Notes: generated by a model not told the origin, from the sequence alone. 64,000 bases of DNA from an uncultured Acidobacteriaceae bacterium (GCA_964542805.1 CAZIWR010000001.1:2600-66599); one strand, 5' to 3'; shown: positions 39,265-58,207, counted from the stretch's first letter. Numbers and translations: made by a program.

Positions 39265-41106
39265 TTATCCGAAAATTTCTAAAATCTCCTCATACCTCTT
39301 GAACGGTGGAATCAAATACGCTCCCGCCAGTTCCGTCTTGGCCCAATCCAGCATGCGCCGCGCCAGCAAGAACCCGCGCGCGCGCGCCTCGGTTCCCGCC
39401 GCTTCCAATTCTTTTTGCACGTTTTCCGGAATCACGATCCCCGGCACTTCGTTGTTCAGCCGCAGCGCTTGCTTGTAGCTGATCAGCGGCCACACGCCGA
39501 CCATCACTGGAATCGGGCATTTTCCGCCAATCTTTTTCACGAACGCGTGCCAGTGCTCCGGATCAAACAGCGGCTGGGTCATCGCGAAATGCGCCCCGGC
39601 CTCCACTTTCGCCATGAAGCGTTCGATTTCTTCGTCGAGGTTGTCTGCCACGGGGTTGACCGCCACGCCGATGGAAAAATTCGTTGCGCCGCCGAGCGTT
39701 TTGCCCGCCCAGTCCATGCCCTGATTCAGCCGCGCCAGAATTTTCACCAGGCCGATGGAGTCCACTTCGTACACTCCGCTGGTTTCCGGGTGGTCGCCCA
39801 GCGACGGCGGGTCGCCGGTAATCGCCAGCACGTTGCGCACGCCGCCCACCGACCACGCTCCCAGCAGCGCCGCCTGCAAGCCGATGATGTTCAAGTCGCG
39901 CGTGGTGAGGTGCGGAATCGTTTCCACGCCGCGCGCCTCCAGCGCCCCGCCGAGCATCAGCGCGTCCATGCCCACACGCGCCAGCGTTCCGCTGTTGATG
40001 TCGATGGCGTCCACTTTTCCCGACGCCATCACTTTCTCCACCTGCTCGAATATTCTCTCCAGTGACACGCCCTTCGGCGGATCAATCTCCACGCTGGTGA
40101 CGAACTTCTTCTGCTGAATTTTCTTCCACAGCTTGCTTTCCGGTTCGTGGACCACGCGTGCTTTCGGCGCGGCCGCCGCCACGCTGCTGGGCGTGTGCCC
40201 TGCGTGCCTCGACGGGTGAAGATCCTTCACCGCTTCGGCGATGGCATGGATGTGCGCCGGCGTGGTGCCGCAGCAGCCGCCCAGGATGCGCACGCCCAGC
40301 GCCGCCGCCTCGCGCGCAAACATCGAAAAATATTCCGGCGACGACTTCGGATACACCACGCGGTCGCCCACGCGCTTGGGGAAGCCCACGTTGGGCATCC
40401 CGCTCACGCCCGCGATGGTGCCGGCCTCCAGCCCGCAAAACTCCTCCAGGATGGGCATCAGCGCCTGCGGCCCCAGTGTGCAGTTCGCGCCGATCACTTG
40501 CACATCCTTCTTGCTTAGCCGCTGCCAGGCGTCCGCCGGCGTGGTGCCGCCGAACGTGGTGGCTTCTTCGGAAAATGTCAGCTCCGCCACAATCGGCAGC
40601 CGCGAAAATCCGCGGACGGCGTCAATCGCGGCGATCAGCTCCTCGATGTCGGAAAAAGTTTCCAGCACAAATAAATCCACGCCGCGCTCTTCCAGCGCCT
40701 GCGCCTGCTCGCGGAAGATGTCGCGGATTTCCTCAACCGGCAACGGGTTCACCTGCCGCGTAGCGCCCAGCGGCCCGACGGACCCGGCGATGAGCACTTC
40801 GCGCGCCGCCGCCTCGCGCGCTTCGCGGGCCACTTTCACGCCGCGGTGATTCAGCCGCGCTACGCTTTCGCCCAGGCCCAGCAGCCCGAGCTTGTAGCGG
40901 TTGGCGCCGAAGGTATTCGTCTCGATGATTTGCGCGCCGGCCTGGATGTACGCCTGGTGCACGCGGAAGACGGCTTCCGGCTCCGTGGCGTTCAGCTCGT
41001 CGAAGCAGCGCTGCGGCCCCAGCGACTCGTACAGCATCGAGCCCATCGCCCCATCCGCGACGAGAATCGCGTCCTTCAACCTCGCATTGAAATCTTCAAT
41101 CCTCAT
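39265..41106 (-). CDS. Bifunctional homocysteine S-methyltransferase / 5,10-methylenetetrahydrofolate reductase (YitJ-like)
   Basis: 613 aa. N-terminal Hcy-binding domain (ILVADGAMGSML...ETNTFGAN...GGCCGTTPAHI) and a C-terminal MetF-like TIM barrel (FVTSVEIDPPKG...ITGDPP). Confidence 0.85.
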   Translation of the reverse strand: MRIEDFNARLKDAILVADGAMGSMLYESLGPQRCFDELNATEPEAVFRVHQAYIQAGAQIIETNTFGANRYKLGLLGLGESVARLNHRGVKVAREAREAAAREVLIAGSVGPLGATRQVNPLPVEEIRDIFREQAQALEERGVDLFVLETFSDIEELIAAIDAVRGFSRLPIVAELTFSEEATTFGGTTPADAWQRLSKKDVQVIGANCTLGPQALMPILEEFCGLEAGTIAGVSGMPNVGFPKRVGDRVVYPKSSPEYFSMFAREAAALGVRILGGCCGTTPAHIHAIAEAVKDLHPSRHAGHTPSSVAAAAPKARVVHEPESKLWKKIQQKKFVTSVEIDPPKGVSLERIFEQVEKVMASGKVDAIDINSGTLARVGMDALMLGGALEARGVETIPHLTTRDLNIIGLQAALLGAWSVGGVRNVLAITGDPPSLGDHPETSGVYEVDSIGLVKILARLNQGMDWAGKTLGGATNFSIGVAVNPVADNLDEEIERFMAKVEAGAHFAMTQPLFDPEHWHAFVKKIGGKCPIPVMVGVWPLISYKQALRLNNEVPGIVIPENVQKELEAAGTEARARGFLLARRMLDWAKTELAGAYLIPPFKRYEEILEIFG

Positions 41107-41239: not shown

Positions 41240-42628
41240 CTACCGCACTTGCTCCACCAGCCCCGCAATGGTCCCCATCAAATCGTATTTCGTCAGTATT
41301 TCGTACTGTCCGCCGCCCATGTCCACGAACACGGCGGGGCTCTCGTGGCCCAGCAGGTGGGTCAACCGCTCCACCGGCGCGTCCTTCGGCACGGTGGGCA
41401 GCGCCTTGCCCATCACTTCGCGGATCACCAGCTTGCGCAGATCTTTTCCTTGCAGCGCGAGATTCAGGATCTGGTCCTCGAAGATCGTGCCGATCAGCGC
41501 GCTCTCCTCGAAGACGGGGAGTTGCGAGATGTCCTGCCCCTGCATCACGCGCAGCGCGTGGAACACCGTCTGATACGGCCGCGCGATTTGCAGTTCGCGT
41601 GTTTTTCCTTGCGCGTGCTTCACGCGCACCACATCTTCCGCGCGCAGCGCCGTTTTCGCGTCCACGTACGCATGGTCGCGCATCCATTCGTCGTTGTACA
41701 CGTTGGAGAGGTAGCGCATCCCTGTGTCCGGCAGAAAGGCCACTACGCAGGCCGTGGGGGGCAGCGTCCGCGCCAGGTTCAGCGCCGCGGACACGCATCC
41801 GCCGCACGACCCGCCGGTGAAGATGCCTTCCATTTTCGCCAGCCGCCGCGTGTACACGAAGCACTCCTCGTCGCCCACCTGCACCACGTCATCGAGCAGC
41901 GAAAAATCCAGCGTGTCGTGCAGGCTGTCGCCGCCGATGCCTTGCACCACGTACGTCGTCCCCTTGATCATTTTTTTGCTTTTGAAGTAGTCGAAGTAAA
42001 TCGACCCGACGGGGTCCACGCCGACAATCTGAATCTTCGGATTTTTTTCCTTCAGGAATTGCGCGATGCCCGTGGTTGTGCCGCCGGTGCCCAGCCCGCA
42101 GACGAAGTGCGTGATTTTTCCGTCCGTGTCTTCCCAGATTTCCGGACCGGTCGTTTCGTAGTGCGCCCGCGGGTTGTCCGGGTTCGAATACTGGTCCGGG
42201 TAATACGAATTCGGAATCTCCTTGGCCAGCTTCTGCGCCACCTGATGGTAGTGTCGCGGGTCGGTGGGCTCCACCGCCGTGGGACACACGATCACTTCCG
42301 CGCCCACCGCTTTCAGCAGGTCAATTTTTTCTTTCGACTGCTTGTCGTTGATCGTGAACACCACTTTGTACCCGCGCACCGCCGCCACCAGCGCCAGGCC
42401 CATGCCCGTGTTCCCGCTGGTCGCTTCGATGATCGTGCCGCCCGGCTTGAGCAGGCCTTTCTTCTCCGCCGCGTCAATCATAGTGATCCCGATGCGGTCC
42501 TTCACCGAGCCGCCCGGGTTCAGGTAGTCCGCCTTCACGAACACATCGCAGGCGATGCCCTCCGCCATGCGGTTCAACTTGATGAGCGGCGTCTTGCCCA
42601 CGGCATCCAATATGCTGTTGCACTTCAT
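41240..42628 (-). CDS. Cystathionine beta-synthase-type PLP enzyme with C-terminal CBS-domain pair
   Basis: Track ORF trimmed to MKCNSILDAVGKTPLIKLN. PGGSVKDRIG (PLP Lys) and TSGNTGMGLA. The C-terminal ~130 aa have CBS-pair character. Confidence 0.85.
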   Translation of the reverse strand: MKCNSILDAVGKTPLIKLNRMAEGIACDVFVKADYLNPGGSVKDRIGITMIDAAEKKGLLKPGGTIIEATSGNTGMGLALVAAVRGYKVVFTINDKQSKEKIDLLKAVGAEVIVCPTAVEPTDPRHYHQVAQKLAKEIPNSYYPDQYSNPDNPRAHYETTGPEIWEDTDGKITHFVCGLGTGGTTTGIAQFLKEKNPKIQIVGVDPVGSIYFDYFKSKKMIKGTTYVVQGIGGDSLHDTLDFSLLDDVVQVGDEECFVYTRRLAKMEGIFTGGSCGGCVSAALNLARTLPPTACVVAFLPDTGMRYLSNVYNDEWMRDHAYVDAKTALRAEDVVRVKHAQGKTRELQIARPYQTVFHALRVMQGQDISQLPVFEESALIGTIFEDQILNLALQGKDLRKLVIREVMGKALPTVPKDAPVERLTHLLGHESPAVFVDMGGGQYEILTKYDLMGTIAGLVEQVR

Positions 42629-42768
42629 TCGCGCGCTTCTCCTCGCTTCCAACGCATGCCCTGAATCCTGATTCCTTTTCCGCCTAGTATCGCACGTCGC
42701 CCGCGCGCCTTGCCACCTTGTTACTTCCCGCCTGTTTCCGGCGTAGAATCATTGTAGAGAGGTGCCCT

Positions 42769-45071: not shown

Positions 45072-45461
45072 ATGCAGCGTCAAAACATCTCCAGCGGCAC
45101 CAAGTGGGAACCCATCGTCGGCTATTCGCGCGCGGTGCGCGTCGGCCCGCACGTGCACGTGTCCGGCACCACCGCCACCGACGCCGGCGGCAAAATCGTC
45201 GGTGTGGGCGACGCCTACGCGCAGGCCATGCAGACGCTGGCCAACATTGAAGCGGCGCTCAACCGCGCCGGCGCCAAACTCGCCGACGTCGTGCGCACGC
45301 GCATCTACGTTACCAACATCACCAACTGGGAAGCCATCGCCAGCGCCCACGGCAAATATTTTGCGGAAATTCGCCCGGCGACGTCCCTAGTCGAAGTTTC
45401 CCGCCTCATTGCGCCGGAGATGCTTGTCGAAATCGAAGCCGACGCATACGTGGCCGAATGA
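45072..45461 (+). CDS. ridA: RidA/YjgF/UK114-family reactive-intermediate deaminase
   Basis: Track ORF 44748..45461 trimmed to the ATG at 45072. [16 protein letters not shown]...DVVRTRIYV...[11 protein letters not shown]...VEIEADA fits the family. 129 aa. Confidence 0.85.
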
Positions 45462-46477
45462 TGGACACCCCCGTGCGCACCTGCAACCTCTGTCTTCTCG
45501 GCTTCGGCAACGTTGGCCGCGCCTTCGCTCGTCTGCTGCTCGACAAATCCGCCGAACTTCGCGAGCGCTACGCCATTGAAGCGCGCATCACAGGTGTCGC
45601 CTCGCGACGCCTGGGCTGGCTGGCCAACCAGAGTGGTTTCGACGTAGAAAAACTTCTGGCCGGTAATTTCGCCGGCGGCACGAAGTGCGGTTTCATTCGT
45701 GAATGGCTCTCCCGCAGCCGCCCCGACGCGCTGTTTGAAATCTCCTCCGTCAACGCGCAGACCGGCCAGCCGGCCATCGACCACATCCGCGCCGCGCTCG
45801 AGCACGGCGCCCATGCCATCACCGCCAATAAAGGCGCCGTGGTCCACGGCTATGCGGCACTGCGCGACCTGGCCGCCGCGAAAGGGAAGCGTTTTCTTTT
45901 TGAAGCCTGCGTGATGGGCGGCACGCCAATTTTTTCTCTCTTCCGCGAGACGCTTCCCGCCACGCAGCTTCTGCGCTTCCGCGGCATCCTGAACTCCACC
46001 ACCAGTCTCATCCTTTCCGAAATGGAAAACGGAATCTCCTTCGACGACGCCGTGAAAAAAGCGCAAGCCCTCGGCATTGCCGAGACCGATCCCTCCGCCG
46101 ACCTCGACGGCTGGGACGCCGCCGTGAAAGTCCACGCCTTGGCCACCGTGCTGATGGACGCGCAGCTGCAGCTCGGCGACATCGCCCGCGAGAGCATTCG
46201 CGGCATTTCGCCGCAACAGGTGCTTGCCGCGCGCGCCGCCGGCAAAAAGATTCGCCTCGTCGCGCAAGCCGAAAAATCTCCCGCGGGAATTGTCGCCTCC
46301 GTGCGTCCCATGGAAATTCCCCTGGGCGATCCTCTCGCCGCCGTCAGCCCCACCGGCCTCATTCTGCATTTCGAACTCGACACGCTCCGTGACCTCGTCG
46401 TCGCCGCCGACCGCCAGGGCCCCGACACCACCGCCTATGGTTTGCTCGCCGATTTCCTTTCCGCCATCCGCACATAG
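45458..46477 (+). CDS. hom: Homoserine dehydrogenase
   Basis: ATGA overlap with rid[12 protein letters not shown] (NAD-binding), [17 protein letters not shown] and [17 protein letters not shown] are characteristic. Confidence 0.8.
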
Positions 46478-46530
46478 TGTCGGGTTGATCCCGCCATCTT
46501 TGTCGACCCTTGATCCCTCTTCCGAATTTG

Positions 46531-46551
46531 ACTATCAACTATCCACTATCG
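46531..46551. repeat. Three tandem heptamers ACTATCN
   Basis: ACTATCA ACTATCC ACTATCG lies 18 nt upstream of the cassette's methyltransferase ATG (46569). A TGATCCCT motif at 46511-46518 also occurs at 43895-43902 and 58252-58259. Confidence 0.7.
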
Positions 46552-46568
46552 CCTATAAACTTTCCCCG

Positions 46569-47372
46569 ATGTCCTCTCACGCCCAGCACGAATACTCCGA
46601 CGTCTTTGCCGAGTTCTACGACCACACGCCGCTCTATCGCACGCGTCCGGACATCGCTTTCTACGTCGAAGAAGCCCGCCGCGCCGGCTCCGTCCTCGAG
46701 CTGGGCTGCGGCAGCGGCCGCATTTTGATTCCGACGGCCGCGGCCGGCGTGCCCATCACCGGCCTCGACCTTTCCGATTCCATGCTCGCGCGCTGCCGCG
46801 AAAAGCTCGCCGCGCAGCCCGCCGAGGTGCGCGCTCGCGTGCGCCTCGTCCATGGCAGCATGACGGATTTCGATCTCCCGGAAAAATTCGCGCTCGTCAC
46901 CACGCCCTTCCGCGCGTTCCAACACCTCATTTCCATCGACGACCAGCTCGCCTGCCTGCGCTGCGTGCACCGCCATCTCGCCCCCGGCGGACGGCTGATC
47001 CTCGACATGTTTCAAGTGAACGCCGCGGGACTGGGCGATCCGGAATGGATGCGCGAGCGCGAAGACACGCCCGAAACCAAACTTCCCGACGGTCGCAGCT
47101 TCCGCCGCACCGCGCGCATTGCCGCCTTCCATCGCGCCGAGCAGGTCAACGACATCGAGTTCGCCGTGTACCTCACGCACCCCGACGGCCGCACCGAGCG
47201 CCACACGCAGACCTTTCCGATGCGCTATTTTTTCCCCAAGGAAGTCGAGCATCTGCTGGCCCGCTCCGGCTTCCGCGTGGTCACCGTCTACGGCGATTTC
47301 AACCGCTCGCCGCTGGCCAACGATTCGCCTGACATGCTCACCATTGCCGAGAAATCCGATGAGCGCGGATGA
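46569..47372 (+). CDS. Class I SAM-dependent methyltransferase (first gene of the RiPP-like cassette)
   Basis: Track ORF 46224..47372 trimmed to the ATG at 46569 (MSSHAQHEYSDVFAEFYD). VLELGCGSGR (motif I) and LAPGGRLILD. The 3' end overlaps the next gene by 14 nt. Confidence 0.8.
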   Translation: MSSHAQHEYSDVFAEFYDHTPLYRTRPDIAFYVEEARRAGSVLELGCGSGRILIPTAAAGVPITGLDLSDSMLARCREKLAAQPAEVRARVRLVHGSMTDFDLPEKFALVTTPFRAFQHLISIDDQLACLRCVHRHLAPGGRLILDMFQVNAAGLGDPEWMREREDTPETKLPDGRSFRRTARIAAFHRAEQVNDIEFAVYLTHPDGRTERHTQTFPMRYFFPKEVEHLLARSGFRVVTVYGDFNRSPLANDSPDMLTIAEKSDERG

Positions 47373-48477
47373 CGCGCGTTCTCTCCGGCAGTTGCTTGCG
47401 CTCTGCATCCGCCCCGCCGAGTGCGAGCTCCCTGCCGGCGACGCCGAATGGAACGCGCTTCTTCCGCTTGCTCTCGCTCACGGAGTCGGCCCGCTGCTCT
47501 TCGCCAATCTGCGCGAGCGCGTTCTCCCTGTCCAAGCCCGCGACCAGTTACGCCACGTCTACCTTTCCAATTCCTTCCGCAACGAAAAACTTCTCGCCGA
47601 GCAGCAGCGCATTCTCGACGCTTTCTCCAAAAAATCCCTTGCCGTCTGGCCGCTGAAGGGACCGCATCTTTCACAAACACTCTATGGCGACCCTGCCGCT
47701 CGTCAGGTCGCCGATTTGGATCTCCTCATCCGTCCTGAAATCCTCGCCGCTTGCGATGAGCTTCTCCATTCCTTCGGCTACACGCGCCAGGCGCAAGGCG
47801 ACATCGCCACCCTGCGCGACGCCGGCGAACTTATCTATCTTCGCTCCGCCCCGGACGTTGCTGGCTCGATGAACTATGCGGTGGATCTCCAGCAGCGCGT
47901 GCTGCCCTATGGCCGCCGCGACCCGCTCGCCGACCGCATACGTACGCACGGCCTCACGCCGGAAAATCTTCTTCTACTTCTTTGCGTCAACCAGATTGCT
48001 CACCGCTTCTCGCGCCTCAAATATCTCCTTGACGTCGCCGCCTGTCTTCGCGCGCTCCCCGCAAATTTCGATTGGAACGATTTCACCGCCACTGCGCAGC
48101 TTCTTCACTTCACTCCCGGCATCTACTGGAGCCTCTATTGGGCTCGCGACGCTGCCGGTGCGCCGGTGCCCGAGCTTGTGCTGGAAGAATTGCGCCCAGG
48201 CTGGTCTTCGCGCAGGCTGGCATCGCGCGTGCTGGGCGGCGATCCACTTGCCCTGCTCGCACGCGGCGCTTCGCTCGACGGCCCTGCAGGCGCTTGGGCC
48301 ATCCTAGCCTGCTCGCGTCCTGGCCTCCCGCGCCTCGGACAGTTCTGGCGGCTGCTGTTTCCTCCCCGCGCCACTCTTCGCCAGGAATTCTTCGACGCTC
48401 CCGGACGCTCCATCCTTTATCTCTATTTCGTCCGCCTCGCCCGCAAACTCCCCGCCGCACTGCGCCGCCATTCGTAG
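47359..48477 (+). CDS. PF14907-like 'uncharacterised nucleotidyltransferase' family protein
   Basis: Track ORF 47119..48477 trimmed to the ATG at 47359 (MSADDARSLRQLL). AVWPLKGPHLSQTLYGDPAARQVADLDLLIRPEILAACDELLHSFGY matches my memory of the NTP_transf_5 core (LKG...Y...R...D-D-L). Confidence 0.75.
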   Translation: MSADDARSLRQLLALCIRPAECELPAGDAEWNALLPLALAHGVGPLLFANLRERVLPVQARDQLRHVYLSNSFRNEKLLAEQQRILDAFSKKSLAVWPLKGPHLSQTLYGDPAARQVADLDLLIRPEILAACDELLHSFGYTRQAQGDIATLRDAGELIYLRSAPDVAGSMNYAVDLQQRVLPYGRRDPLADRIRTHGLTPENLLLLLCVNQIAHRFSRLKYLLDVAACLRALPANFDWNDFTATAQLLHFTPGIYWSLYWARDAAGAPVPELVLEELRPGWSSRRLASRVLGGDPLALLARGASLDGPAGAWAILACSRPGLPRLGQFWRLLFPPRATLRQEFFDAPGRSILYLYFVRLARKLPAALRRHS

Positions 48478-48601
48478 AGGCGAACGGAATACTCTCGCGG
48501 GTGACCATGCCCCCTTTCCCTATTCCGGAAATATACGGTTTTAAACCCTAAATTGTAGTTATTAGAGGGTGTAGATTTGGTACCCGGAACTCTGTCATTT
48601 A

Positions 48602-48631
48602 TTGACAGACATGAGCTTAGGCACGTAAAGT
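48602..48631 (+). promoter_or_regulatory. Sigma70-like promoter candidate (TTGACA-N18-TAAAGT) upstream of the kinase/PqqD/radical-SAM/peptide genes
   Basis: A perfect -35 hexamer at 48602-48607 and TAAAGT at 48626-48631, inside the only conspicuously AT-richer gap of this block (48478-48732). The -35 is embedded in the palindrome CTGTCA-TTTAT-TGACAG (48592-48608). Confidence 0.4.
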
Positions 48632-48732
48632 CGCATCACCCGAATTTTGGGTCGGCGCACAATCTTCCTCTCGCGGACCGTTTTGGTTCGCTGGCGCCTG
48701 CCCAGTCTGGGATTCGAGGAGGCCTTACCGGG

Positions 48733-49494
48733 GTGGCTCACGCCCCTCAGAGCACGCCGCTGTCTGTGTCCATCGGCCGCGTTCCCCTGACGCTATTCTT
48801 TCGTGAAGCCGCACTCCAGCAAAAGGCCGCCGCGCGCTATTCCGCCTTCCACAATTCTTCGGAAAACGGCTTCCCCGTTTACCTCGAACCGGATAAGAAT
48901 TTTCATCCCGGCACGGGTTTCGATTTTTCCCTCCACGGCGCCACGCTGCGCCTGGACTCCGCCGCCGCGCGCATCTCCGGCATTCAGTCCGACTACACGG
49001 TGGATTCGCTCCTGCGCGTGCTGCTCTCCATGATCTTGCTGCCGCATCGCGGCTTCCTGCTGCATGCGGCCACTATCGAGCGCCACGGCCGGGCCCACAT
49101 CTTCATGGGCCGCTCGGGCGCGGGCAAAAGCACCGTCGCCGGACTGGCGCCTGCCGGCACGCCACTTACTGACGAAATCTCTCTGCTGCGCGGCGACGCC
49201 GATGGCTGGCGCGCGCACGGCACGCCTTTTTGGGGCGAGTTTCGCGCCGGCGACCGCAATTGTCACATGCCTGTCGCGGGTATTTACGCGCTGATGCAGG
49301 CTGAAGAAAACCGCCTGGAAAAGATTGCGCCGCGCGAAGCCCTGCGCGGGCTGCTCGAAAATGTTCTGTTCTTCTCCGATGACCGTGCCTCGCGCGAACA
49401 GCTGTTGAGTATCGTCTCGGCCTGTGCCGAAGCGCTGCCCTTCTTTCGCCTTCACTTCAAGCGCGACTCCAGCTTCTGGGAGGTGCTCCCGTGA
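48733..49494 (+). CDS. HPr-kinase-like (HprK C-terminal domain-like) P-loop kinase
   Basis: FLLHAATIERHGRAHIFMGRSGAGKSTVAG is the HprK-like H-A-(A/S)...G.SG.GKS P-loop. I chose the GTG at 48733, preceded by GAGGAGG 10 nt upstream. The track start at 48577 (TTG) is an alternative. Confidence 0.7.
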   Translation: MAHAPQSTPLSVSIGRVPLTLFFREAALQQKAAARYSAFHNSSENGFPVYLEPDKNFHPGTGFDFSLHGATLRLDSAAARISGIQSDYTVDSLLRVLLSMILLPHRGFLLHAATIERHGRAHIFMGRSGAGKSTVAGLAPAGTPLTDEISLLRGDADGWRAHGTPFWGEFRAGDRNCHMPVAGIYALMQAEENRLEKIAPREALRGLLENVLFFSDDRASREQLLSIVSACAEALPFFRLHFKRDSSFWEVLP

Positions 49495-49811
49495 GCGCCC
49501 CGCAGCCGGCACTCGCCTCCGTTCGCCCGGCGCAGAATCCGCTGGCCGCCTGGCGTGAAATTGACGGCGTGGTGGTGGTGATTTCGCCCGAGGATAGCGT
49601 GCTGCACGAGCTCAACCCCACGGCCGGATTCATCTGGAAGCACTCCACCGGCGAGCGCACCGCCGAAGAAATCGCCCGGCTCCTCGTGGACGAATTCGAA
49701 GTAGACGCCGCCACGGCGCTGGCCGACACGCGCGAGCTCATCGCCGAGCTGGCTGCCAAAAAGCTTCTGCATACGGAAGCCGCTGCTGCCGCGGAGGTGT
49801 CCCGTGGCTAG
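49491..49811 (+). CDS. PqqD-family peptide chaperone (RiPP recognition element-like)
   Basis: 106 aa, GTGA overlap with the kinase. WREIDGVVVVISPEDSVLHELNPTAGFIWKHSTGERTAEEIARLLVDEFEVD is the classic PqqD/RRE pattern. Confidence 0.8.
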   Translation: MSAPQPALASVRPAQNPLAAWREIDGVVVVISPEDSVLHELNPTAGFIWKHSTGERTAEEIARLLVDEFEVDAATALADTRELIAELAAKKLLHTEAAAAAEVSRG

Positions 49812-50961
49812 CGCGGCCGTGATGGACCGTCTGGTGGCGCGTTCGCTGGCGCGCAACGCCCCGCTCAACGTGCATTTCGACGTCACCTACCGCTGCAACG
49901 AGCGCTGCGTGCACTGCTATCTAGACCATGCCGACCACGGCGAGATGACCACCGCGGAAATCAAGCGCGTGCTCGCCGAGCTGGCCGACGCCGGCACGCT
50001 CTTCCTGACCTTCTCCGGCGGCGAGATTTTTCTGCGCCCCGACTTCTTCGACCTGCTGGCCTACGCCCGCCAACTGCGCTTCGACGTCACCCTGAAGACC
50101 AACGCCCTGCTTATCACCGAGGAGCGCGCCGCGCAGCTCCGCCGCCTGGGCGTGCGCCGCATTCAGATCAGCTTGTACAGCGCGGACGCCGCCATCCACG
50201 ATTGCATCACCAAGGTGCCCGGCTCCTTCGCGCGCACTCTCGAGGCGCTGCGCTTCTGCCATGCGCAGGGACTGCTGGTCAAAATCTCCTGCCCGCTCAT
50301 GAAGCAGAACATCGCCGTCTGGCGCGAAGTGCAAGCGCTGGCTGATTCGCTCGGTGTCACTTTCATTATGGACCCCACCATCACGCCCATGATGGACGGC
50401 AATCGCAGCACGTTGGACATGCGCCTGGCTCCCAGCGAGTTGCTGCCCGTGATGCAGGCCCCGGTCTTTGACACGCCCGCGCCGGCGCCCGCCAAAGCCG
50501 GGGGCGCAGAAATGGCCGCGGCCTTCGACAACATCCCATGCAGCGCCGGGCACAACAGCCTCTACATTTCGCCCTACGGAGATATTTATCCCTGCGTGCA
50601 AATGCCGCTGCCCACCGGCAACCTGCGCGAAAAATCCTTCTCCGATATCTGGTACAGTTCGCCAAAAATGCTGCGCGTCCGCAACGTCAGGGAAAGCGAC
50701 CTGGCCACCTGCAATGACTGTGACATCCGCCATCACTGCCAGCGTTGCCCGGGCCTCGCCTTCATGGAAGACGGCGATCTCGGCGGTCCTTCCGAGCGCG
50801 CGTGTGAGTTGGCGGAAGCCGCCGCGCGCCTGGCCGGCGTTCGAAATCCCGTGAGCGGCCTGCGCGCCCTCGGCCGCCTGCACGCCACATCGAATTCCCA
50901 TCCCGCTCAGCTCGTTCACATCGCTGCGCTGAGCACTTCACAGGAGCGAGATGCCCTATGA
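49804..50961 (+). CDS. Radical SAM enzyme with full C-terminal SPASM domain (peptide-modifying maturase type)
   Basis: CNERCVHC (CxxxCxxC) and FSGGE. SPASM cysteines: CSAGHNSLYISPYGDIYPC (Gx4C), CNDCDIRHHCQRC, and a further C in ERAC. The GTG start is preceded by GGAGG at 49793-49797, and it overlaps the PqqD gene by 8 nt. Confidence 0.9.
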   Translation: MASAAVMDRLVARSLARNAPLNVHFDVTYRCNERCVHCYLDHADHGEMTTAEIKRVLAELADAGTLFLTFSGGEIFLRPDFFDLLAYARQLRFDVTLKTNALLITEERAAQLRRLGVRRIQISLYSADAAIHDCITKVPGSFARTLEALRFCHAQGLLVKISCPLMKQNIAVWREVQALADSLGVTFIMDPTITPMMDGNRSTLDMRLAPSELLPVMQAPVFDTPAPAPAKAGGAEMAAAFDNIPCSAGHNSLYISPYGDIYPCVQMPLPTGNLREKSFSDIWYSSPKMLRVRNVRESDLATCNDCDIRHHCQRCPGLAFMEDGDLGGPSERACELAEAAARLAGVRNPVSGLRALGRLHATSNSHPAQLVHIAALSTSQERDAL

Positions 50962-51125
50962 GCACAAACAAGCAGAACGCCACGACCGCGGCCGGCACTT
51001 CCCAGCGGAAGCCTTACGTCAAACCGCAGTGCCTCTCGGAGAAGATTTTTGAGACCACCGCGCTCGCCTGCGGCAAGCTGCCCGCCGGCGGCGGTCTGTG
51101 TGCCGGGGCGCCCAAAGCTTCTTAG
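50958..51125 (+). CDS. Candidate RiPP precursor peptide, 55 aa, unannotated (below the ORF-track size cutoff)
   Basis: ATG at 50958 overlaps the radical-SAM stop (ATGA). AGGAG lies at 50942-50946. My translation is MSTNKQNATTAAGTSQRKPYVKPQCLSEKIFETTALACGKLPAGGGLCAGAPKAS, with TAG at 51123-51125. By my count about 43 of 54 codons end in G/C, like the neighbouring genes. It has three Cys, a Gly-rich C-terminal part and a C-terminal Ser. Confidence 0.55.
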   Translation: MSTNKQNATTAAGTSQRKPYVKPQCLSEKIFETTALACGKLPAGGGLCAGAPKAS

Positions 51126-51215
51126 TAGGTGAGACGGGGGGCGTGCCGTCTGCTGTCAGGCAAACAGCGCCGGCCCGCAACCAGATTGCGTATGCACGAG
51201 TTTTGCGGAGGAGCC

Positions 51216-51797
51216 ATGAAACGACACATGAAAGTCCTGGGCGGCGCAATTCTTCTGACGGGCGCACTGCTGGCTCTGGCAGCGCCCGCCGTCGCGCAGA
51301 ATCGCCGGCCTGAGGGCCGCGGGCGCACGGATGCGGATGGCAAGAAGGTGAAGCCGCTCAAGCCGACGGTGAATGCTGTCACCGAGGTTTTCTTTTGTGA
51401 GAGCCCCACCACGGAGTGCCGCTCCACCAACACCACGTTCACCGTTGGCAAGCTCCGCGACATCTTTGTGTTTGTCACCTGGCCCAACGTCTCCGGAGAC
51501 TTGGTGCAGACCGTGGAGTTCTTCCTGCCCGACGGCAGCCTCTACGTCAAGAAGGCTACGCCGTTCCGCGCCAGTACGGCGCAGCCCCGCGCACGCGCCG
51601 TCCTAGGGGCCTCTCCTGTGGTCGACGCGTTCCTGACTTCCAGCCGCGGCACTCCCACGGTGATTACTCCGCTCGCTGTGGCCGGCACCTACATTACCCA
51701 GCGCAGCCTGCTGGGTACCTGGACGGTGCGTGTCCGGCTCGGCGACAAACCCGTACAGAGCGCGCAGTTCACGTTGAAAGCGCCCGACCAGAAGTAA
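51216..51797 (+). CDS. Secreted hypothetical protein (Ig-like/beta-sandwich character)
   Basis: Track ORF 51129..51797 trimmed to the ATG at 51216, preceded by GGAGGAG. Signal peptide MKRHMKVLGGAILLTGALLALAAPAVAQ. No recognisable catalytic motif. Confidence 0.55.
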   Translation: MKRHMKVLGGAILLTGALLALAAPAVAQNRRPEGRGRTDADGKKVKPLKPTVNAVTEVFFCESPTTECRSTNTTFTVGKLRDIFVFVTWPNVSGDLVQTVEFFLPDGSLYVKKATPFRASTAQPRARAVLGASPVVDAFLTSSRGTPTVITPLAVAGTYITQRSLLGTWTVRVRLGDKPVQSAQFTLKAPDQK

Positions 51798-51902
51798 CGC
51801 TTTCGCGACGCCCAAGCAGCTTACTGATTGGCCAACTCACCGCAATGCTGTAGAACAGATTGCGATGTGTTTTGAGGGTGGGCAGTTTCTAGGAGGGCTC
51901 GT

Positions 51903-54161
51903 ATGAGTGCGTTCCATCGAATTCGATGCATCGTATCCCTGGTGCTGGTGGCTTTGCTCGCGTTACCGGCGCCGCCGCTCCGCGCGGACGAGGTCACCAC
52001 TCTTACCGCTTCCGCGGATTCCTTTCTGCGACAAAATGCCGCCACCACCAATTCCGGAGCACTGACCACGTTCAACGTGTCATCCACCGCAGCAGGCACA
52101 GCAAGGGAACGCGGCATTGTGCAATTTGACCTGTCTTCCATCGTCTCCACCGCGGCCGTGAAAACCTCCTTCGTGAAACTCTTTTTATTGACTGCCCCCA
52201 ACCCCGCCCGTTCCAATAGAATCCATCGCGTGACCGCTGCCGGGGCCTGGGTTGAGAGCCAGGTGACTTGGAACAACCGAGCGACCGCAACTGCATGGAC
52301 AGCCGCCGGCGGCGATTTCAATGCGACCGCCGCCAATACCCAGAGCACTGGCACCACCAACAACGTCACCATCACCTACACTCTGCTCGGCGATGGCACC
52401 GTCGCCAACATCCCCCAGGGTTGGGTCGATGGCTCCCTTACCAATCGGGGACTCATGGTCCTCGACTCGAACGAGACCTTTCAGAACAAAACATCTACGT
52501 ACGCCTCCAAAGAAAACGCCACCGTCGCCAATCGCCCGAAGGTCGAGGTTCATTTTCTTCGCGACGTTACCGTCGGCTCGGTTACCCCGGGCGTTTCCGA
52601 AGTCACTCTGAATTTCACTTTTCCGGCCGGTGCCACGGGCGCCAACTATGATGGCGCCCTGATAGCCAGAAAGCCCGGCGCGACCGCTCCCACGTTCGCT
52701 CCCGTCGACGGCACTACCTACATCTTCGGCAGCCAGCCCGTCCTCGGCGAAACGATCGCCTCCAACGCCGCCAACTTCGCCGCCTCACCCGCCACCGTCA
52801 CCGTCACCGATGAGAACGGCTCTGACAATGTCATCACTCCGTCCACCCAATACAGCTACAAGATCTACACTCGCGACAACAACTTCATCACCGGCGCCGC
52901 GGTTGTTGCTCCTCCACATTTCTCTTTGGGCAGTGCCGCCACCTCCACGGTGACCACCTCCGCCTCAGGCGGCGCCAACAAGAATTGGAGCTACAAAACC
53001 TCCAGTACCATTCTCGCGCCCCCCGGTCTCGATCCCGGCAACAAAGTCGTAGCTGGCTCGGATGACTTCGATGTTCACAGCATGAATGCCGTAACCGGCG
53101 CGCGCAATTACCAGCCCTCCAGCCCCATCGGCACCACCGGCGACATGATTCAGACCCGTCCCGCAGTGATTTCCTCGGCGGACAGCACGCTTGCCGTTGA
53201 CGTCACCTATGTTGGCTCCAACGATGGTCGCGTCTATGCGTTCAATGCCAACACCGGGGTGCTGATTTGGGTCACTCCTGCGCCCGGTTCCCCCGGCGCT
53301 CTGGTTGCTGTGGGCGGCATCATTCAGGGCGGCATCGCCTTGCAGCTCAAGAGTTTTGCCAACGGCGGCTTCACTCCCACCACGGATCTGGTCTTCGTCG
53401 GCACCCGTGAGTTCTCCACCACTGCCAACAGCGTGTACGCCCTGAACGCGAATACTGGCGCGATCGTCTGGACCTTTACCCCTGGCAACATGGACCATGT
53501 CAATTCCACTCCTGTCGTGGACTACGCTAACAACACCATTTGGGTCTCCACTCTTTCCAACCTCGGTGGCCAGCCAAGCCTCTGGAAAATCGACAGCGTG
53601 ACCGGCGCGGGCATCTCCAATTTCAGCCTCGGCGACATCAGCGGCTCTCCCACGCTGAATTTCGACAACAAGGTCGTTTACGCCGTCACCGATTCAGGCG
53701 ACCTCGTTGCCGTGCGCAACGACATCGCCTCCTGCGTCAACACGTTCTCCTTTGGCGCCACCTCCGGCACCGGCTTCCCCATTCCCATCGGCACTGGACT
53801 TCTCCGCAACGAAAACATTTTCTTCACCACCACCACCGCCGGCGCCAGCACCATTCGCAAGGTCAACTTCATTTACAACCTCACCTGCGGGGGCGAAACC
53901 ATCGGCGCTGCCGGCGGTTACACCAACCCCTCCGGCATCGGCACCATCTCCGGCCCCATGTTTAATCCCTTTACCAGTTTCATTTACGTCGGCTCCTCCG
54001 ACGGCAACCTGTACAAGATTGACCCGGCCGCCGGCACCGTCCTCGCCAGCCGCACCGTCAATGCCGGCGTGGTCATCGGCGAGCCCAGCTTCGACGTCTA
54101 TCTCCTCAAGCTCTACGTCGGCGACACCCAGGGCCGCATCTATTCCTTCGACGTCTTCTAA
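51903..54161 (+). CDS. Large secreted protein: N-terminal DNRLRE/CBM-like domain, FN3-like segment, C-terminal PQQ-like (BamB-type) beta-propeller
   Basis: Signal peptide IVSLVLVALLALPAPPLRA. The N-terminal LRQNAATTNSGA...GIVQFDLSSI...VTWNNR pattern is like DNRLRE domains. C-terminal repeats GRVYAFNANTGVLIW, NSVYALNANTGAIVW, GDLVAV, GNLYKIDPAAGTV and GRIYSFD are PQQ-like propeller blades. Confidence 0.6.
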   Translation: MSAFHRIRCIVSLVLVALLALPAPPLRADEVTTLTASADSFLRQNAATTNSGALTTFNVSSTAAGTARERGIVQFDLSSIVSTAAVKTSFVKLFLLTAPNPARSNRIHRVTAAGAWVESQVTWNNRATATAWTAAGGDFNATAANTQSTGTTNNVTITYTLLGDGTVANIPQGWVDGSLTNRGLMVLDSNETFQNKTSTYASKENATVANRPKVEVHFLRDVTVGSVTPGVSEVTLNFTFPAGATGANYDGALIARKPGATAPTFAPVDGTTYIFGSQPVLGETIASNAANFAASPATVTVTDENGSDNVITPSTQYSYKIYTRDNNFITGAAVVAPPHFSLGSAATSTVTTSASGGANKNWSYKTSSTILAPPGLDPGNKVVAGSDDFDVHSMNAVTGARNYQPSSPIGTTGDMIQTRPAVISSADSTLAVDVTYVGSNDGRVYAFNANTGVLIWVTPAPGSPGALVAVGGIIQGGIALQLKSFANGGFTPTTDLVFVGTREFSTTANSVYALNANTGAIVWTFTPGNMDHVNSTPVVDYANNTIWVSTLSNLGGQPSLWKIDSVTGAGISNFSLGDISGSPTLNFDNKVVYAVTDSGDLVAVRNDIASCVNTFSFGATSGTGFPIPIGTGLLRNENIFFTTTTAGASTIRKVNFIYNLTCGGETIGAAGGYTNPSGIGTISGPMFNPFTSFIYVGSSDGNLYKIDPAAGTVLASRTVNAGVVIGEPSFDVYLLKLYVGDTQGRIYSFDVF

Positions 54162-54244
54162 TCCTCATCGTACTGGTCTTCGCCTTTTTGCTTCGTAGGA
54201 GCGCATGGTCCCGATTCAGAGGATGTGTGGATCGACGAATTTCG

Positions 54245-54276
54245 CTGTCACTCTGCAACTCTGTCACTCTGCAACT
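54245..54276. repeat. Perfect 16-bp tandem direct repeat (CTGTCACTCTGCAACT x2)
   Basis: Positions 54245-54260 and 54261-54276 are identical. It lies 56 nt upstream of the S24/S26 peptidase ATG. Confidence 0.85.
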
Positions 54277-54301
54277 TTCTATCCGCGCGCATCTATGCTT
54301 T

Positions 54302-54307
54302 TATAAT
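54302..54307 (+). promoter_or_regulatory. Perfect TATAAT hexamer 25 nt upstream of the S24/S26 peptidase start
   Basis: TATAAT at 54302-54307. No convincing -35 at 17±1 bp (CTATCC). It follows a perfect 16-bp tandem duplication. Confidence 0.3.
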
Positions 54308-54331
54308 GCTTCGACCATTCTGCACTCTCAC

Positions 54332-54826
54332 ATGAACACCATCTCCACGGCTGCTCCCCCCGAACTCGTTCCCGACGACGTCCGCCTCCGCGCCGAGATG
54401 CTCGCCGACGTCCTCCGTTCCGGCGGCACGGTCACGCTCCGCGTCTTCGGCGGCAGTATGTGGCCCTGGCTGCGCTCCGGTGACGCGATTTCCGTTCGCC
54501 GCGAAGACGCTGCGCGCATCCATCTTGGCGAAGTGGTGCTCTTTGCCCGCGAAGGCCGCCTCTTCGCCCACCGCGTAATCCGCAAACTCGCTCGCGATGG
54601 CCGCGCGGTACTCATCACCAAAGGCGATGCGCTGCCCCACGCCGATGCCCCGCTCGAATCCGCTGAACTGCTCGGCCGCATCTTCCGTGTCCGCCGCGCC
54701 GGACGCGAGTTCGCTCTCGATTCGCCGCAGCGCCGCGCGCTCGGCCGCGCCGCTGCGTTGCTCACCCACTCCAGCCGCTTCTGGTACCCTCTGGCCCGCG
54801 CCCTCAAACGCGCCTTCTCCCCGTAG
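54332..54826 (+). CDS. S24/S26-family (LexA/signal-peptidase-I-like) serine peptidase
   Basis: Track ORF 54188..54826 trimmed to the ATG at 54332. FGGSMWPWLRSGD (nucleophile Ser in the GxSM context) and LITKGDA (general-base Lys context). 164 aa. Confidence 0.65.
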   Translation: MNTISTAAPPELVPDDVRLRAEMLADVLRSGGTVTLRVFGGSMWPWLRSGDAISVRREDAARIHLGEVVLFAREGRLFAHRVIRKLARDGRAVLITKGDALPHADAPLESAELLGRIFRVRRAGREFALDSPQRRALGRAAALLTHSSRFWYPLARALKRAFSP

Positions 54827-54934
54827 CGTCCACCCCTCGGCGGCTCCTGTGTGTTTGAGCTGTGTCCTCTGCGCCTTCTTTGCGTCCTCTGTGTTAGTGT
54901 TTGGCCTGTTCCCATCGTCTTTTGCGAGGCTTCC

Positions 54935-55555
54935 ATGCACTTCATTTCTGCCATCTGCAATCTGAAAATCTCCATTCTGCGAATCATCGTCGTTTGCATT
55001 TTGTTGTTTGCTGTACCGTCATCGCGCGCGCAGGCCCCTCCTCCCGTCCGAGTCCTCTTCGAAACCCAGCTCGGCGCCATCACCATCGAAGTGGACGCCG
55101 CCCGCGCGCCCGTCACCGCGGCCAATTTCCTGCGCTACGTCGACGCCGGTTTCTACAACGGCGGCGTCTTTCATCGCACCGTGCGCCTTAGCAACCAGCC
55201 CGACAAGAAAGTGAAGATCGAAGTCATTCAGGCCGGCGCCGACCCCGCCCGCGCACGCAGCGGATTTCCGCCCATCCCTCTCGAGCGCACCAACAAAACA
55301 GGACTCGCCCACACCGACGGCTGCGTCTCCATGGCCCGCGACACTCCCGACACCGCCACCTCCGATTTTTTCATTTGCATCGGCGACCAGCCCGCGCTCG
55401 ATTTCGGCGGCGCTCGCAACCCCGATGGACAGGGCTTCGCCGCCTTCGGCCGTGTGATCAAGGGCATGGACGTCGTTCGCAAAATTCAGGCCGCCCCTGC
55501 CGACGCGCAGAAGCTTACCCCTCCCGTCAAAATCCTCTCCGCCAAGCGCCTGTAG
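54935..55555 (+). CDS. Secreted cyclophilin-type peptidyl-prolyl cis-trans isomerase
   Basis: Trimmed to the ATG at 54935. Signal-like ISILRIIVVCILLFAVPSSRAQA. AANFLRYVDAGFYNGGVFHR, VSMAR and DFFICIG...FGRV are cyclophilin motifs. Confidence 0.85.
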   Translation: MHFISAICNLKISILRIIVVCILLFAVPSSRAQAPPPVRVLFETQLGAITIEVDAARAPVTAANFLRYVDAGFYNGGVFHRTVRLSNQPDKKVKIEVIQAGADPARARSGFPPIPLERTNKTGLAHTDGCVSMARDTPDTATSDFFICIGDQPALDFGGARNPDGQGFAAFGRVIKGMDVVRKIQAAPADAQKLTPPVKILSAKRL

Positions 55556-55677
55556 CGGCCACCTCTAAGTGGGCATCTTGCTTGCTTCGAACTTCGTCTT
55601 TATTCCGCTCCCCAGCCGCGCCGCCCCCTCGTGCTACCATTCGAACGAATTGATTTGCACGGGTGCCGGACACACGC

Positions 55678-57075
55678 ATGTCGCAACTCGGTCGTTACGA
55701 AATCCTCGATGAACTGGGCAGCGGATCGATGGGCACGGTCTTCCGCGGCCGCGATCCCATGATTGACCGCGAAGTCGCGGTGAAGACCATTCGTCTGCAG
55801 GGTTTCGCCCCGGGAGAAACCGAAGGTTTTCGCGAGCGCTTTTTCCGCGAGGCCCAGGCCGCGGGAAAACTCTCCCACCCGGGCATCGTCACCATTTACG
55901 ACGTCGGCGTGGACGAGACCGCCCGCACTCCCTTCATCGTGATGGAGCTCATCGCCGGCCGCACGCTCCTGTCCTTGGTCGATGCCGCTCCCGCTCCGCT
56001 CCCGGTCGGCGAAACTCTTGGCCTCGTCAAACAGATCGCCGAAGCGCTCGACTACGCGCACTCCGCGGGCATCGTGCACCGCGACATCAAGCCCGCCAAC
56101 ATCATCGTCACTCCCGCCGGCCGCCCCATCATCACCGACTTCGGTGTGGCGCGACTCCGCAAATCGCAGGTCACCGTGCAGGGCGAAATGATTGGTACTC
56201 CCGCCTTCATGTCGCCCGAGCAGGTGCGCGGCGAGCGCGTGGACGGCCGCGCCGACCTTTTCTCTCTCGGCGTCATCCTCTACTGGATGCTCACGCTCGA
56301 AAAGCCTTTCACCGGAGAGCTCGCCGACCTTATGTTCAAGATCGTCTATCGCGATCCCGCTCCTCCCAGCGCGCTCATCCCCGCTTTGCGTCCCGACTTC
56401 GACGCCGTCATTGCCCGCGCTCTCGCCAAGCCCCGCGAGTCTCGTTATCAAACCGGAGATGAATTTGCCGGCGACCTCGACTGCCTCCTGAGCGGCCAGG
56501 CTCCGCACGCACCGGTTCCTGCTCCGGCTGGCGCCGCTCCCGCAGCCGAACAGACCATGCGCCTGCCAACTGCGGAGGCTTCCGCCACGTTGCCCCTGGC
56601 GGTTGGCCCTCGCGAACGCGCCTCGGATCTCGCCACGCATGTGATCGGCCGCGTCCGCGCCTGGAGCGCGCGCCGCAAGCAAGTCACGCTCCTCGTCGCC
56701 GTGCTTGCCCTGTTGGTGCTCGTGCTGTGGGCGTTCCTGCCGTCGGCCCAATCCGTCCTGGCAATCTCTCTGCAACACAACTTTCGCGCCGGCGCTATTT
56801 CCGTCTGGGTGGACGACCGCCTGGTCCTGGAGGAAAACCTCGTGCATGACGAAGTGCATCGTTTGCCCTTCGCCGCCCCGCGTTATGTCGGCAGGTTTTC
56901 CGAGTCCGTGATCCTCCGCGCCGGCGAGCGCACCATTCGGGTGCGCGTCAATTCCCCCGACGCTGGCTTTGACGAAGTCCGTGAACTCAGCGGCACATTT
57001 CCCAAAGACGGGGACCGCTCGCTCTCCATCAACTGCGACGCGAAAAGGAATTCCCTCACCCTCTCCCTCCGCTGA
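55678..57075 (+). CDS. Hanks-type Ser/Thr protein kinase with TM segment and C-terminal extracytoplasmic domain
   Basis: GRYEILDELGSGSMGTVF (Gly-rich loop), VAVK, HRDIKPANI, DFG and SPE. TM segment VTLLVAVLALLVLVLWAFL. The start may be the GTG at 55663 instead. Confidence 0.85.
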   Translation: MSQLGRYEILDELGSGSMGTVFRGRDPMIDREVAVKTIRLQGFAPGETEGFRERFFREAQAAGKLSHPGIVTIYDVGVDETARTPFIVMELIAGRTLLSLVDAAPAPLPVGETLGLVKQIAEALDYAHSAGIVHRDIKPANIIVTPAGRPIITDFGVARLRKSQVTVQGEMIGTPAFMSPEQVRGERVDGRADLFSLGVILYWMLTLEKPFTGELADLMFKIVYRDPAPPSALIPALRPDFDAVIARALAKPRESRYQTGDEFAGDLDCLLSGQAPHAPVPAPAGAAPAAEQTMRLPTAEASATLPLAVGPRERASDLATHVIGRVRAWSARRKQVTLLVAVLALLVLVLWAFLPSAQSVLAISLQHNFRAGAISVWVDDRLVLEENLVHDEVHRLPFAAPRYVGRFSESVILRAGERTIRVRVNSPDAGFDEVRELSGTFPKDGDRSLSINCDAKRNSLTLSLR

Positions 57076-57086
57076 CTTTTGTCCTC

Positions 57087-57120
57087 CGATTTTCGTTTTT
57101 CGATTTTTCGGTTTTCGTCT
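57087..57120. repeat. T-rich TTTCG-type low-complexity intergenic repeat
   Basis: CCGATTTTCGTTTTTCGATTTTTCGGTTTTCGTCT. Related tracts occur at 21449-21485, ~27880-27905, ~35840-35870, 39243-39262 and 59787-59825 (ATTTCGAGTCTCGAATTTCGCGTTTCG). Confidence 0.65.
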
Positions 57121-57134
57121 TTCTATCTCTGCTC

Positions 57135-57148
57135 ATCTGTGGTTTCAT
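57135..57148. repeat. 14-mer ATCTGTGGTTTCAT (copy 2, upstream of uxs)
   Basis: Identical to 45039-45052. It lies 30 nt upstream of the proposed uxs TTG start. Confidence 0.7.
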
Positions 57149-57177
57149 ATCCCTTCTTCTGTTCGGGAGACTCAACT

Positions 57178-58131
<954 letters not shown>

Positions 58132-58207
58132 CCCGCCTCTTTCGCGCCTTTTGCGCCCCGACCGTTTTTGTCGGGGAGAGGCGGGGCCTCGTCGCATAAA
58201 GCAAAAA

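Follow-up and report, generated by a model that had tools for sequence, protein, structure and literature searches.

A radical-SAM peptide cluster with an HprK-like kinase in an uncultured Acidobacteriaceae bacterium, and its near-invariant C-terminal serine as a predicted phosphorylation site

Does a short peptide encoded close to an HprK-like kinase carry a phosphate, and perhaps further groups, on its C-terminal serine? The question is raised by a 64,000-nucleotide window, the whole stretch of DNA analysed, from an uncultured Acidobacteriaceae bacterium (GCA_964542805.1 CAZIWR010000001.1:2600-66599), in which an open reading frame (ORF) at 50958-51125 (+) encodes a 55-residue precursor peptide, MSTNKQNATTAAGTSQRKPYVKPQCLSEKIFETTALACGKLPAGGGLCAGAPKAS. 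A first reading made from the sequence only (the sequence-only reading) had described a peptide ending in ...GAPKAS, with the genes for two tailoring enzymes, a kinase and a nucleotidyltransferase (NTase), directly upstream, and had given the locus as 47359-49494. The peptide does end in Ser55 and both enzyme genes do lie upstream, but a PqqD gene and a radical S-adenosylmethionine (SAM) gene stand between kinase and peptide, and the coordinates given span the NTase and kinase, not the peptide. There is little doubt that the locus is a cluster for a ribosomally synthesised, post-translationally modified peptide (RiPP) with a kinase/PqqD/radical-SAM/peptide architecture; all of its genes are on the plus strand. 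The reading favoured here, with moderate confidence, is that a radical-SAM/SPASM maturase has been joined to the HprK-kinase peptide machinery of paeninodin-type lasso peptides and of the linear polyphosphorylated peptides (LPP) of Bacillota, LppA/K/B/S/D/N (Popov et al., Nat Commun 2026, PMC13381572), in an Acidobacteriota-centred family with Ser55 as the phosphorylation site.

The precursor carries much of this reading. Its leader is conserved as RKPY20xKP23...I[FY]ET33, and the predicted core, T34-S55 (TALACGKLPAGGGLCAGAPKAS), contains no Asp or Glu. Homolog alignments show C38 and C48 as invariant core residues and [KR]-x-Ser as the usual ending. No second such peptide is present in the window, and no NCBIfam or Pfam model matches the precursor. 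An exact-sequence search for it matched no indexed contig. Judged from thousands of called homologs with conserved length, the ORF is beyond chance. A first search gave 34 homologs, all 34 of them Ser-terminal, including Armatimonadota at 45% identity. A profile search returned 3,810 precursor clusters (90% identity, E<=1), and the peptide clusters compared at this identity, with 76 distinct cores, end in Ser without exception (132/132). An exhaustive HMMER search against 50%-identity representatives found 848 at E<=1e-3, and among the best 148 of these 848 the terminal residue is Ser in 145, Thr in two and Ala in one. Taken together, 278 homologous peptides end in Ser (275), Thr (2) or Ala (1); the alignment check for an invariant C-terminal Ser, which the sequence-only reading had proposed, thus came out as near-invariant conservation.

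The surroundings of the terminal residue are conserved as well. It is the sole Ser, Thr or Tyr after the FET motif in 71/278 peptides. Two Cys are found in 263/278, and the last Cys stands exactly seven residues from the C-terminus in 267/278, giving a C-x6-S-COOH ending that usually reads ...C-x-x-x-P-[KR]-x-S. A spacing this constant suggests that the terminal Ser is part of a ring or of a recognition unit. Precursors with divergent cores, encoded beside an ScmC-type kinase and a radical-SAM enzyme, are Ser-terminal too, ending in ...HCPTGPISS (L012), ...PVPCSSLGS (L013), ...ESCGTPGS (L014) and ...CRFNRRNS (L025, of a VFETMALACGK subgroup). Eighty metagenomic loci were collected with the pattern [YF]ET[LT]ALACG, a sample biased to the Acidobacteriota-type subfamily, and 79 of the 80 peptides end in Ser; the exception, L079, is extended past it. 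In the L079 precursor (446-), ...APRRSYDEVTLG, seven residues follow the Ser that normally ends the peptide, probably through a changed stop codon or an error in sequencing; if real, the sequence would provide a C-terminal extension variant of natural origin. Two other views of the peptide were rejected: a pyrroloquinoline quinone (PQQ)-like origin, as the E-x3-Y motif is absent and Phe often stands in place of Tyr, and a lipoprotein or signal-peptide reading of the ALAC motif, because the leader is hydrophilic.

The predicted peptide Ser kinase is encoded at 48733-49494 as an ScmC-family P-loop protein of HprK/PEPCK fold. Its start was set at GTG 48733 and not at TTG 48577, because the homologs have 253 residues, as does the protein from GTG 48733, and begin MAHAPQ. 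Sequence searches by themselves connect it to HprK weakly, the best NCBIfam match being ScmC TIGR04249 at 1e-11, below cut-off (44.8 bits, cut-off 125), and a kinase profile against PDB sequences found marginal P-loop and PEPCK matches only. The link to HprK is made by structure prediction: the AlphaFold2 (AF2) model, with a mean predicted local distance difference test (pLDDT) score of 91, matched ATP-dependent PEPCK in Foldseek at E ~1e-8 and a template modelling (TM) score of ~0.55, and the HprK/P structures 1ko7, 1knx and 1kkl at E 1e-4 to 1e-3. The Pfam family PF27840 'ScmC' is annotated on all 120 kinase homologs listed. Invariant in 53 kinase homologs are H111, the Walker-A motif G-x-S-G-x-G-K132-S-T (GRSGAGKST in the window), D147 and E148; the lasso-peptide kinases have a catalytic His-Lys-Asp-Asp set (PMC9266682). 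Searched with tblastn against plasmids, the kinase gave no match.

For the LPP systems, the 'HprK kinase' class was defined by matches to TIGR04249 (67), TIGR04352 (65) and TIGR04355 (11), and only one LPP kinase matches Hpr_kinase_C (PMC13381572, supplementary table). Because these are the models matched here too, the window kinase is, by this profile-based assignment, in the same class, defined by hidden Markov models (HMMs), as the validated LppK. The HprK-like kinase of the sequence-only reading is thus a real ORF whose fold is supported by the AF2 model, Foldseek and PF27840, although its NCBIfam matches stay below cut-off and Hpr_kinase_C is absent.

Gene linkage binds the kinase to the peptide. 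Among the metagenomic loci with at least 2.7 kb of sequence upstream of the peptide, ScmC, PqqD and radical-SAM genes occur together in 46/46, and the three are obligate neighbours of the peptide. Of 23 fully flanked loci, 21 have an S24 peptidase gene. About half of the related loci (18/35) encode the NTase, and 4/35 (~11%) the methyltransferase, so that NTase decoration and methylation are accessory; the further decoration and possible methylation proposed in the sequence-only reading have their genes in this window without being general to the family. A beta-propeller protein is encoded in 17/23 fully flanked loci (duplicated in L004), and homologs of a small secreted protein follow the precursor, likewise in 17/23 (L004, L008, L009, L015 and L016 among the loci that carry them).

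Gene order varies more than gene content. L004 and L005 have the order of the window, L006 and L007 read S24-ScmC-PqqD-peptide-radical-SAM-NTase-methyltransferase (the last reversed), L013 reads NTase-PqqD-radical-SAM-peptide-ScmC-S24, and L025 reads peptide-S24-ScmC-PqqD-radical-SAM; in L006, L013 and L025 the order is thus rearranged with the gene content retained. L021 has only ScmC-PqqD-radical-SAM-peptide. In L004/L005, the closest relative, an extra 197-residue ORF without a family match (5767-6360) lies between the methyltransferase and NTase genes, which overlap in the window.

The remaining enzymes were assigned by profile and structure matches. The discrete PqqD-type RiPP recognition element (49491-49811; PF05402, 5.5e-17) has NCBIfam matches below cut-off to the lasso-type PqqD model NF033530 (9e-9) and to ScmD (1e-6, 28.9 bits vs 100). 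The radical-SAM/SPASM peptide maturase (49804-50961; PF04055 and PF13186) shows in translation the cluster motif CNERCVHC and, at its C-terminal end, a Cys-rich SPASM motif, and its nearest solved structures are SkfB (1e-11), PqqE, SuiB and CteB. It reaches no NCBIfam equivalog cut-off, with scores of 103.5 against 400 for ScmE, 71.3 against 400 for ScmF and 127.6 against 265 for MftC (TIGR03962). The NTase gene reported from the sequence alone is confirmed as an NTP_transf_5 protein of the PsmN/LppN family (47359-48477; PF14907, E 9.5e-41), a family called 'putative NTP transferase' in LPP clusters (PMC13381572). Its KG...Y...R...DxD...R pattern and a later Asp are invariant in six orthologs; it has no match among PDB sequences, and its single-sequence AF2 model (pLDDT 47) is too poor for fold comparison. 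The accessory class-I SAM methyltransferase (46569-47372; Pfam Methyltransf_25/12/11/23) has its best NCBIfam match in a daptide-type RiPP methyltransferase (1.2e-37, 129.7 bits vs cut-off 175).

Two further elements had been overlooked by the sequence-only reading, a peptidase gene at 54332-54826 and the YxxP...FET leader, and together they tie the locus to LPP. The peptidase is a soluble S24/S26 enzyme of archaeal/SipW type and the predicted leader peptidase. It matches TIGR02228 at 1.6e-13 (50.8 bits, just below the cut-off of 51.85), SipW NF046067 at 1.9e-6 and PF00717, and eight orthologs all keep its Ser (in GxSMxP), its His (in HR) and its Asp (in GD).

From these parts a maturation pathway can be proposed. 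The PqqD protein would bind the Y20xxP23 leader motif, as the motif itself and the LPP and lasso precedents suggest, and the radical-SAM/SPASM enzyme would then modify the core, most likely at C38 and C48. The ScmC-type kinase would use ATP to O-phosphorylate, and perhaps polyphosphorylate, Ser55 of the leader-bearing precursor, a step proposed on the kinase fold, its catalytic residues, its obligate linkage and the invariance of the Ser. NTP_transf_5 might decorate the phosphate and the methyltransferase add a methyl group somewhere, both as accessory steps. By analogy with LppS, the SipW-like S24/S26 peptidase would finally cut after T33 of FET and free the 22-residue core. The C-terminal phospho-Ser is the best-supported prediction in this scheme. 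More tentatively, and slightly short of an even chance, the products may form a new and very abundant RiPP class of soil Acidobacteriota and further phyla, in which the core is radical-SAM-crosslinked and (poly)phosphorylated on its terminal Ser, the phosphate is optionally glycosylated or nucleotidylated, and the two main modifications are perhaps structurally coupled, as the C-x6-S geometry hints.

Several observations weigh against phosphorylation and decoration of Ser55. At the level of the kinase, the HprK_rel_A (1e-6) and HprK_rel_B (6e-3) matches are both under cut-off, Pfam Hpr_kinase_C gives no match even at E<=10, and the fourth catalytic residue is Glu148 where the lasso motif as quoted in PMC9266682 has Asp. 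The precedents are also imperfect. LppK polyphosphorylates Ser3 of the core and not the C-terminus, and LppN was inactive in a heterologous host (PMC13381572); in pseudomycoidin the NTase PsmN leads, perhaps indirectly, to hexoses on the phosphate. The operon has no dedicated exporter. Finally, three Armatimonadota genomes (L001-L003, L018-L020) carry a minimal operon of overlapping genes, Antibiotic_NAT-SpoIID-S24-PqqD-peptide, and up to 10 kb away no gene encodes a kinase, an NTase or a radical-SAM enzyme; their peptide (...ACSTIERNS) still retains both Cys, a third Cys and the terminal Ser. Because these kinase-less operons keep it, the Ser is not conserved solely for an adjacent kinase; either the kinase and the other enzymes are encoded elsewhere in these genomes or the Ser has a further role. 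The phospho-Ser tail of the sequence-only reading therefore keeps its support from Ser conservation, the linkage in 46/46 loci and the LppK/LppN-class HMMs, and is held back by the Ser3 site of LppK and by the Armatimonadota operons.

Other roles for the kinase or for the serine were weighed against this. The Armatimonadota operons are the main argument that the terminal Ser is kept for a reason unrelated to the kinase, as a radical-SAM site or anchor, as a recognition element or in the precursor of a propeller cofactor, with ScmC acting elsewhere or as an ATP-dependent scaffold. The radical-SAM enzyme's partial similarity to MftC and PqqE, enzymes that work at the C-termini of peptides or make cofactors, and the PQQ-like propeller 3' of the precursor in 17/23 loci point the same way. 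The same operons, however, also lack a radical-SAM gene, so radical-SAM chemistry is no explanation for the Ser there; the scores fall far short of the equivalog cut-offs for MftC and PqqE, the peptide has neither a C-terminal Val-Tyr nor an E-x3-Y motif, and kinase and peptide are linked in 46/46 loci whereas the propeller is optional. This makes a kinase-unrelated Ser unlikely. A phosphate on the leader/core junction instead (T33 or T34), gating leader cleavage, has a model in LppK, which modifies Ser3, two residues beyond the FET cleavage site, in a precursor that is poorly cleaved without phosphate (PMC13381572), and at the corresponding place the window peptide reads FET-T. Against it, core +3 is Leu in every member examined, position 34 is not conserved (T, L, M, S, N, Q, R or A), T33 gives way in some members to V, A, Q, S or R, LppK rejected an S3T substrate (PMC13381572), and in the 71 cores mentioned above the terminal Ser is the sole hydroxyl residue; a junction phosphate is judged rather improbable. 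Much the same low probability is given to a transient phosphate on Ser55 that is eliminated or displaced to close a ring with Cys, or for another C-terminal transformation. The fixed seven-residue distance of the last Cys in 267/278 peptides would fit such a ring, and class III/IV lanthipeptide synthetases work by phosphorylation followed by elimination (PMC4289311), but the cluster has no conserved lyase-like gene, every characterised HprK-type RiPP kinase leaves stable (poly)phosphates, and the Cys are more simply explained as radical-SAM substrates.

A last alternative takes the kinase and NTase away from the peptide and lets them serve the exopolysaccharide (EPS) loci nearby, with a sugar or lipid intermediate as substrate and the peptide genes as mere chance neighbours. 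EPS genes do lie on both sides, at 12-38 kb and 57-64 kb, and LPP clusters likewise sit within capsule loci (PMC13381572). The upstream locus (12379-37823) encodes a MurJ-like flippase, family 4 glycosyltransferases (one fused to a methyltransferase), GDP-mannose dehydratase, UDP-glucose dehydrogenases, Bac_transf, a Wzc-like GNVR/AAA_31 protein, Poly_export and CpsB; the downstream locus (57079-63945) encodes an epimerase, UDP-glucose dehydrogenase, a GFO oxidoreductase fusion and heparinase II/III. Between the upstream locus and the cluster, however, about 8 kb are taken up by genes for methionine/threonine metabolism and others, among them a homocysteine S-methyltransferase-MTHFR fusion (39265-41106, -), a CBS-domain pyridoxal phosphate enzyme (41240-42652, -), RidA (45075-45461) and homoserine dehydrogenase (45458-46477). 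In relatives the kinase-PqqD-radical-SAM-peptide block, with or without the NTase, stands beside pilin, PAS sensor, transketolase, tRNA synthetase and RelA genes with no EPS genes there, and the kinase is translationally coupled to PqqD. Because the flanking genes differ so widely between loci, the kinase and NTase are assigned to the peptide cluster and not to EPS. The condition that the sequence-only reading had named as refuting it, that the two enzymes act on the EPS loci, is contradicted by recurrence of the cluster where EPS genes are absent; the comparative data largely refute EPS service, which is rated very improbable. RidA or Cys/Met enzymes also occur near the cluster in L004, L015 and L021, which may be plain synteny.

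With phosphorylation of Ser55 kept as the preferred reading, the layout of the operon can be described. The 14-nucleotide overlap of the methyltransferase and NTase genes, reported before, is exact, because the methyltransferase TGA lies at 47370-47372 and the NTase ATG at 47359. Shorter overlaps, also read from the sequence, join kinase and PqqD (4 nucleotides), PqqD and radical-SAM (8) and radical-SAM and peptide (4); the peptide ATG lies within the radical-SAM stop codon (ATGA), with AGGAG 13 nucleotides 5' of the peptide start. A non-coding gap of 255 nucleotides (48478-48732) separates NTase from kinase and contains a predicted promoter-like site, TTGACA-18-TAAAGT (48602-48631, +), the sole sigma-70-like match in 46000-55700. 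Because of the gap and the conservation of this site in L004, methyltransferase-NTase and kinase-PqqD-radical-SAM-peptide may be separate transcription units. Overlapping antisense ORFs were dismissed as artefacts of 63% G+C. In Rfam the sole match in 45-56 kb is a sub-threshold ffh small RNA inside the NTase gene (48185-48253, -), rated as chance (26.1 bits vs gathering score 35, E 0.18). The source Acidobacteriota metagenome-assembled genome has generic gene annotation only.

Downstream of the precursor, a small secreted protein without a family match (51129-51797) has its likely start at ATG 51216, followed by a signal-peptide-like N-terminus. It is followed by a secreted protein in which a DNRLRE/CBM96 domain is fused to a PQQ-like beta-propeller (51903-54161; NF033679 2e-19, PF24517, PF06848, PF13360). 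The propeller and the polysaccharide loci suggest a cell-surface or biofilm function. The layout of precursor, small secreted protein and propeller is loosely like that of peptide-plus-propeller systems, for example quinohemoprotein amine dehydrogenase. Beyond the S24 peptidase lie a cyclophilin-type prolyl isomerase (54851-55555) and a Hanks-type Ser/Thr protein kinase (55663-57075), syntenic in L004/L005.

Peptide phosphorylation is rare among natural products. A 2025 list of phosphorylated natural-product peptides names microcin C, paeninodin, pseudomycoidin, phospeptin, salivaricin 10, micropeptin T20 and guanitoxin, without a case that has both a radical-SAM enzyme and an HprK-type kinase; LPP were added in 2026. 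Literature searches found nothing joining HprK/HPr kinase with radical-SAM/SPASM peptides, and nothing relevant on SynChlorMet or PF14907. The sequence-only reading, which knew of no such combination, holds to this extent, but the SynChlorMet pairing and LPP had already been described. If the proposal is true, the family would be the first case of radical-SAM chemistry and HprK-type phosphorylation together, and would carry HprK-type peptide phosphorylation beyond lasso peptides and Bacillota LPP to Acidobacteriota and other phyla, across a very large sequence space (848 representatives at 50% identity, ~3,800 clusters at 90%). The natural variants with and without an NTase offer a route to the role of NTP_transf_5, which neither PsmN nor LppN has settled.

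Among known systems, mycofactocin is distant, as the MftC cut-off is not reached and the precursor lacks a terminal Val-Tyr. Sactipeptides and ranthipeptides, thioether peptides whose maturases (SkfB and CteB, for example) depend on a recognition element, share with the window a radical-SAM/SPASM maturase, a short Cys-containing core and a PqqD-type recognition element, but here that element is a separate protein and only two Cys are conserved; a kinase, an NTase and an S24 peptidase are not part of these classes. The SynChlorMet (SCM) cassette shares an ScmC-type P-loop protein, a PqqD-like protein and a radical-SAM/SPASM enzyme, so the pairing of these three is already encoded in the SynChlorMet models. 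It has two radical-SAM genes where the window has one, and the scores for ScmC, ScmD, ScmE and ScmF (TIGR04249/04248/04250/04251) are far under the equivalog cut-offs. The cassette is a bioinformatic definition, and the literature searched gave it neither a function nor a precursor nor any rule of a C-terminal Ser.

Paeninodin/pseudomycoidin-type lasso peptides come closer. There the kinases PadeK, ThcoK, SyanK and PsmK take the leader-bearing precursor and (poly)phosphorylate its conserved C-terminal Ser, and the window shares the conserved terminal Ser, an HprK-superfamily kinase and an optional NTase-fold protein. A [Y/W]xxP leader read by a discrete recognition protein is a lasso feature that is matched here as well. 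In contrast to lasso clusters, the kinase has Glu at the predicted fourth catalytic position, the leader peptidase is of the serine type and a radical-SAM enzyme is present. No Pfam family of the lasso macrolactam synthetase or the B2 cysteine protease was found in the operon or in related neighbourhoods. Because a cyclase, a B2 protease and an acidic acceptor for the ring are all missing, the locus is, on gene content and core composition, not a lasso system.

Of the characterised systems, LPP come closest. Their core genes encode the SipW-like peptidase LppS (S29/H68/D93), the recognition protein LppB, the kinase LppK, the NTP_transf_5 protein LppN and an MsbA-type exporter, and the peptidase class is defined by TIGR02228 (PMC13381572). 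The LPP leader reads YxxPxVLxHQxIxFETxxS, and LppS, helped by LppB, cuts after T-1 and needs F-3, E-2 and T-1 (PMC13381572). Shared with the window cluster are a discrete PqqD protein, a kinase of the TIGR04249/TIGR04352 class, NTP_transf_5, a SipW/archaeal-type Ser-His-Asp peptidase, the YxxP and FET leader motifs, the absence of a lasso cyclase and polysaccharide loci nearby. The window cluster adds an obligate radical-SAM/SPASM maturase and two invariant Cys; radical SAM/SPASM is not mentioned in the LPP paper or its supplements (PMC13381572). Its YxxP-FET spacer is two residues shorter and its core lacks Ser at +3. Across this family the core has 22-25 residues and a near-invariant C-terminal Ser, whereas LPP precursors have 35-200 residues and highly variable C-termini. 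An MsbA-type exporter is absent, with no ABC transporter among the ORFs of 45-57 kb; some relatives have MacB-type genes nearby. LPP were stated to be restricted to Bacillota (PMC13381572), whereas this family occurs in Acidobacteriota and other non-Bacillota phyla, often with the secreted propeller and the small secreted protein. Because of the missing core Ser3, the different spacer and the missing exporter, the locus as read from its genes is not a member of LPP as defined. It is like an LPP or paeninodin locus plus a radical-SAM enzyme, in a family notable for its size.

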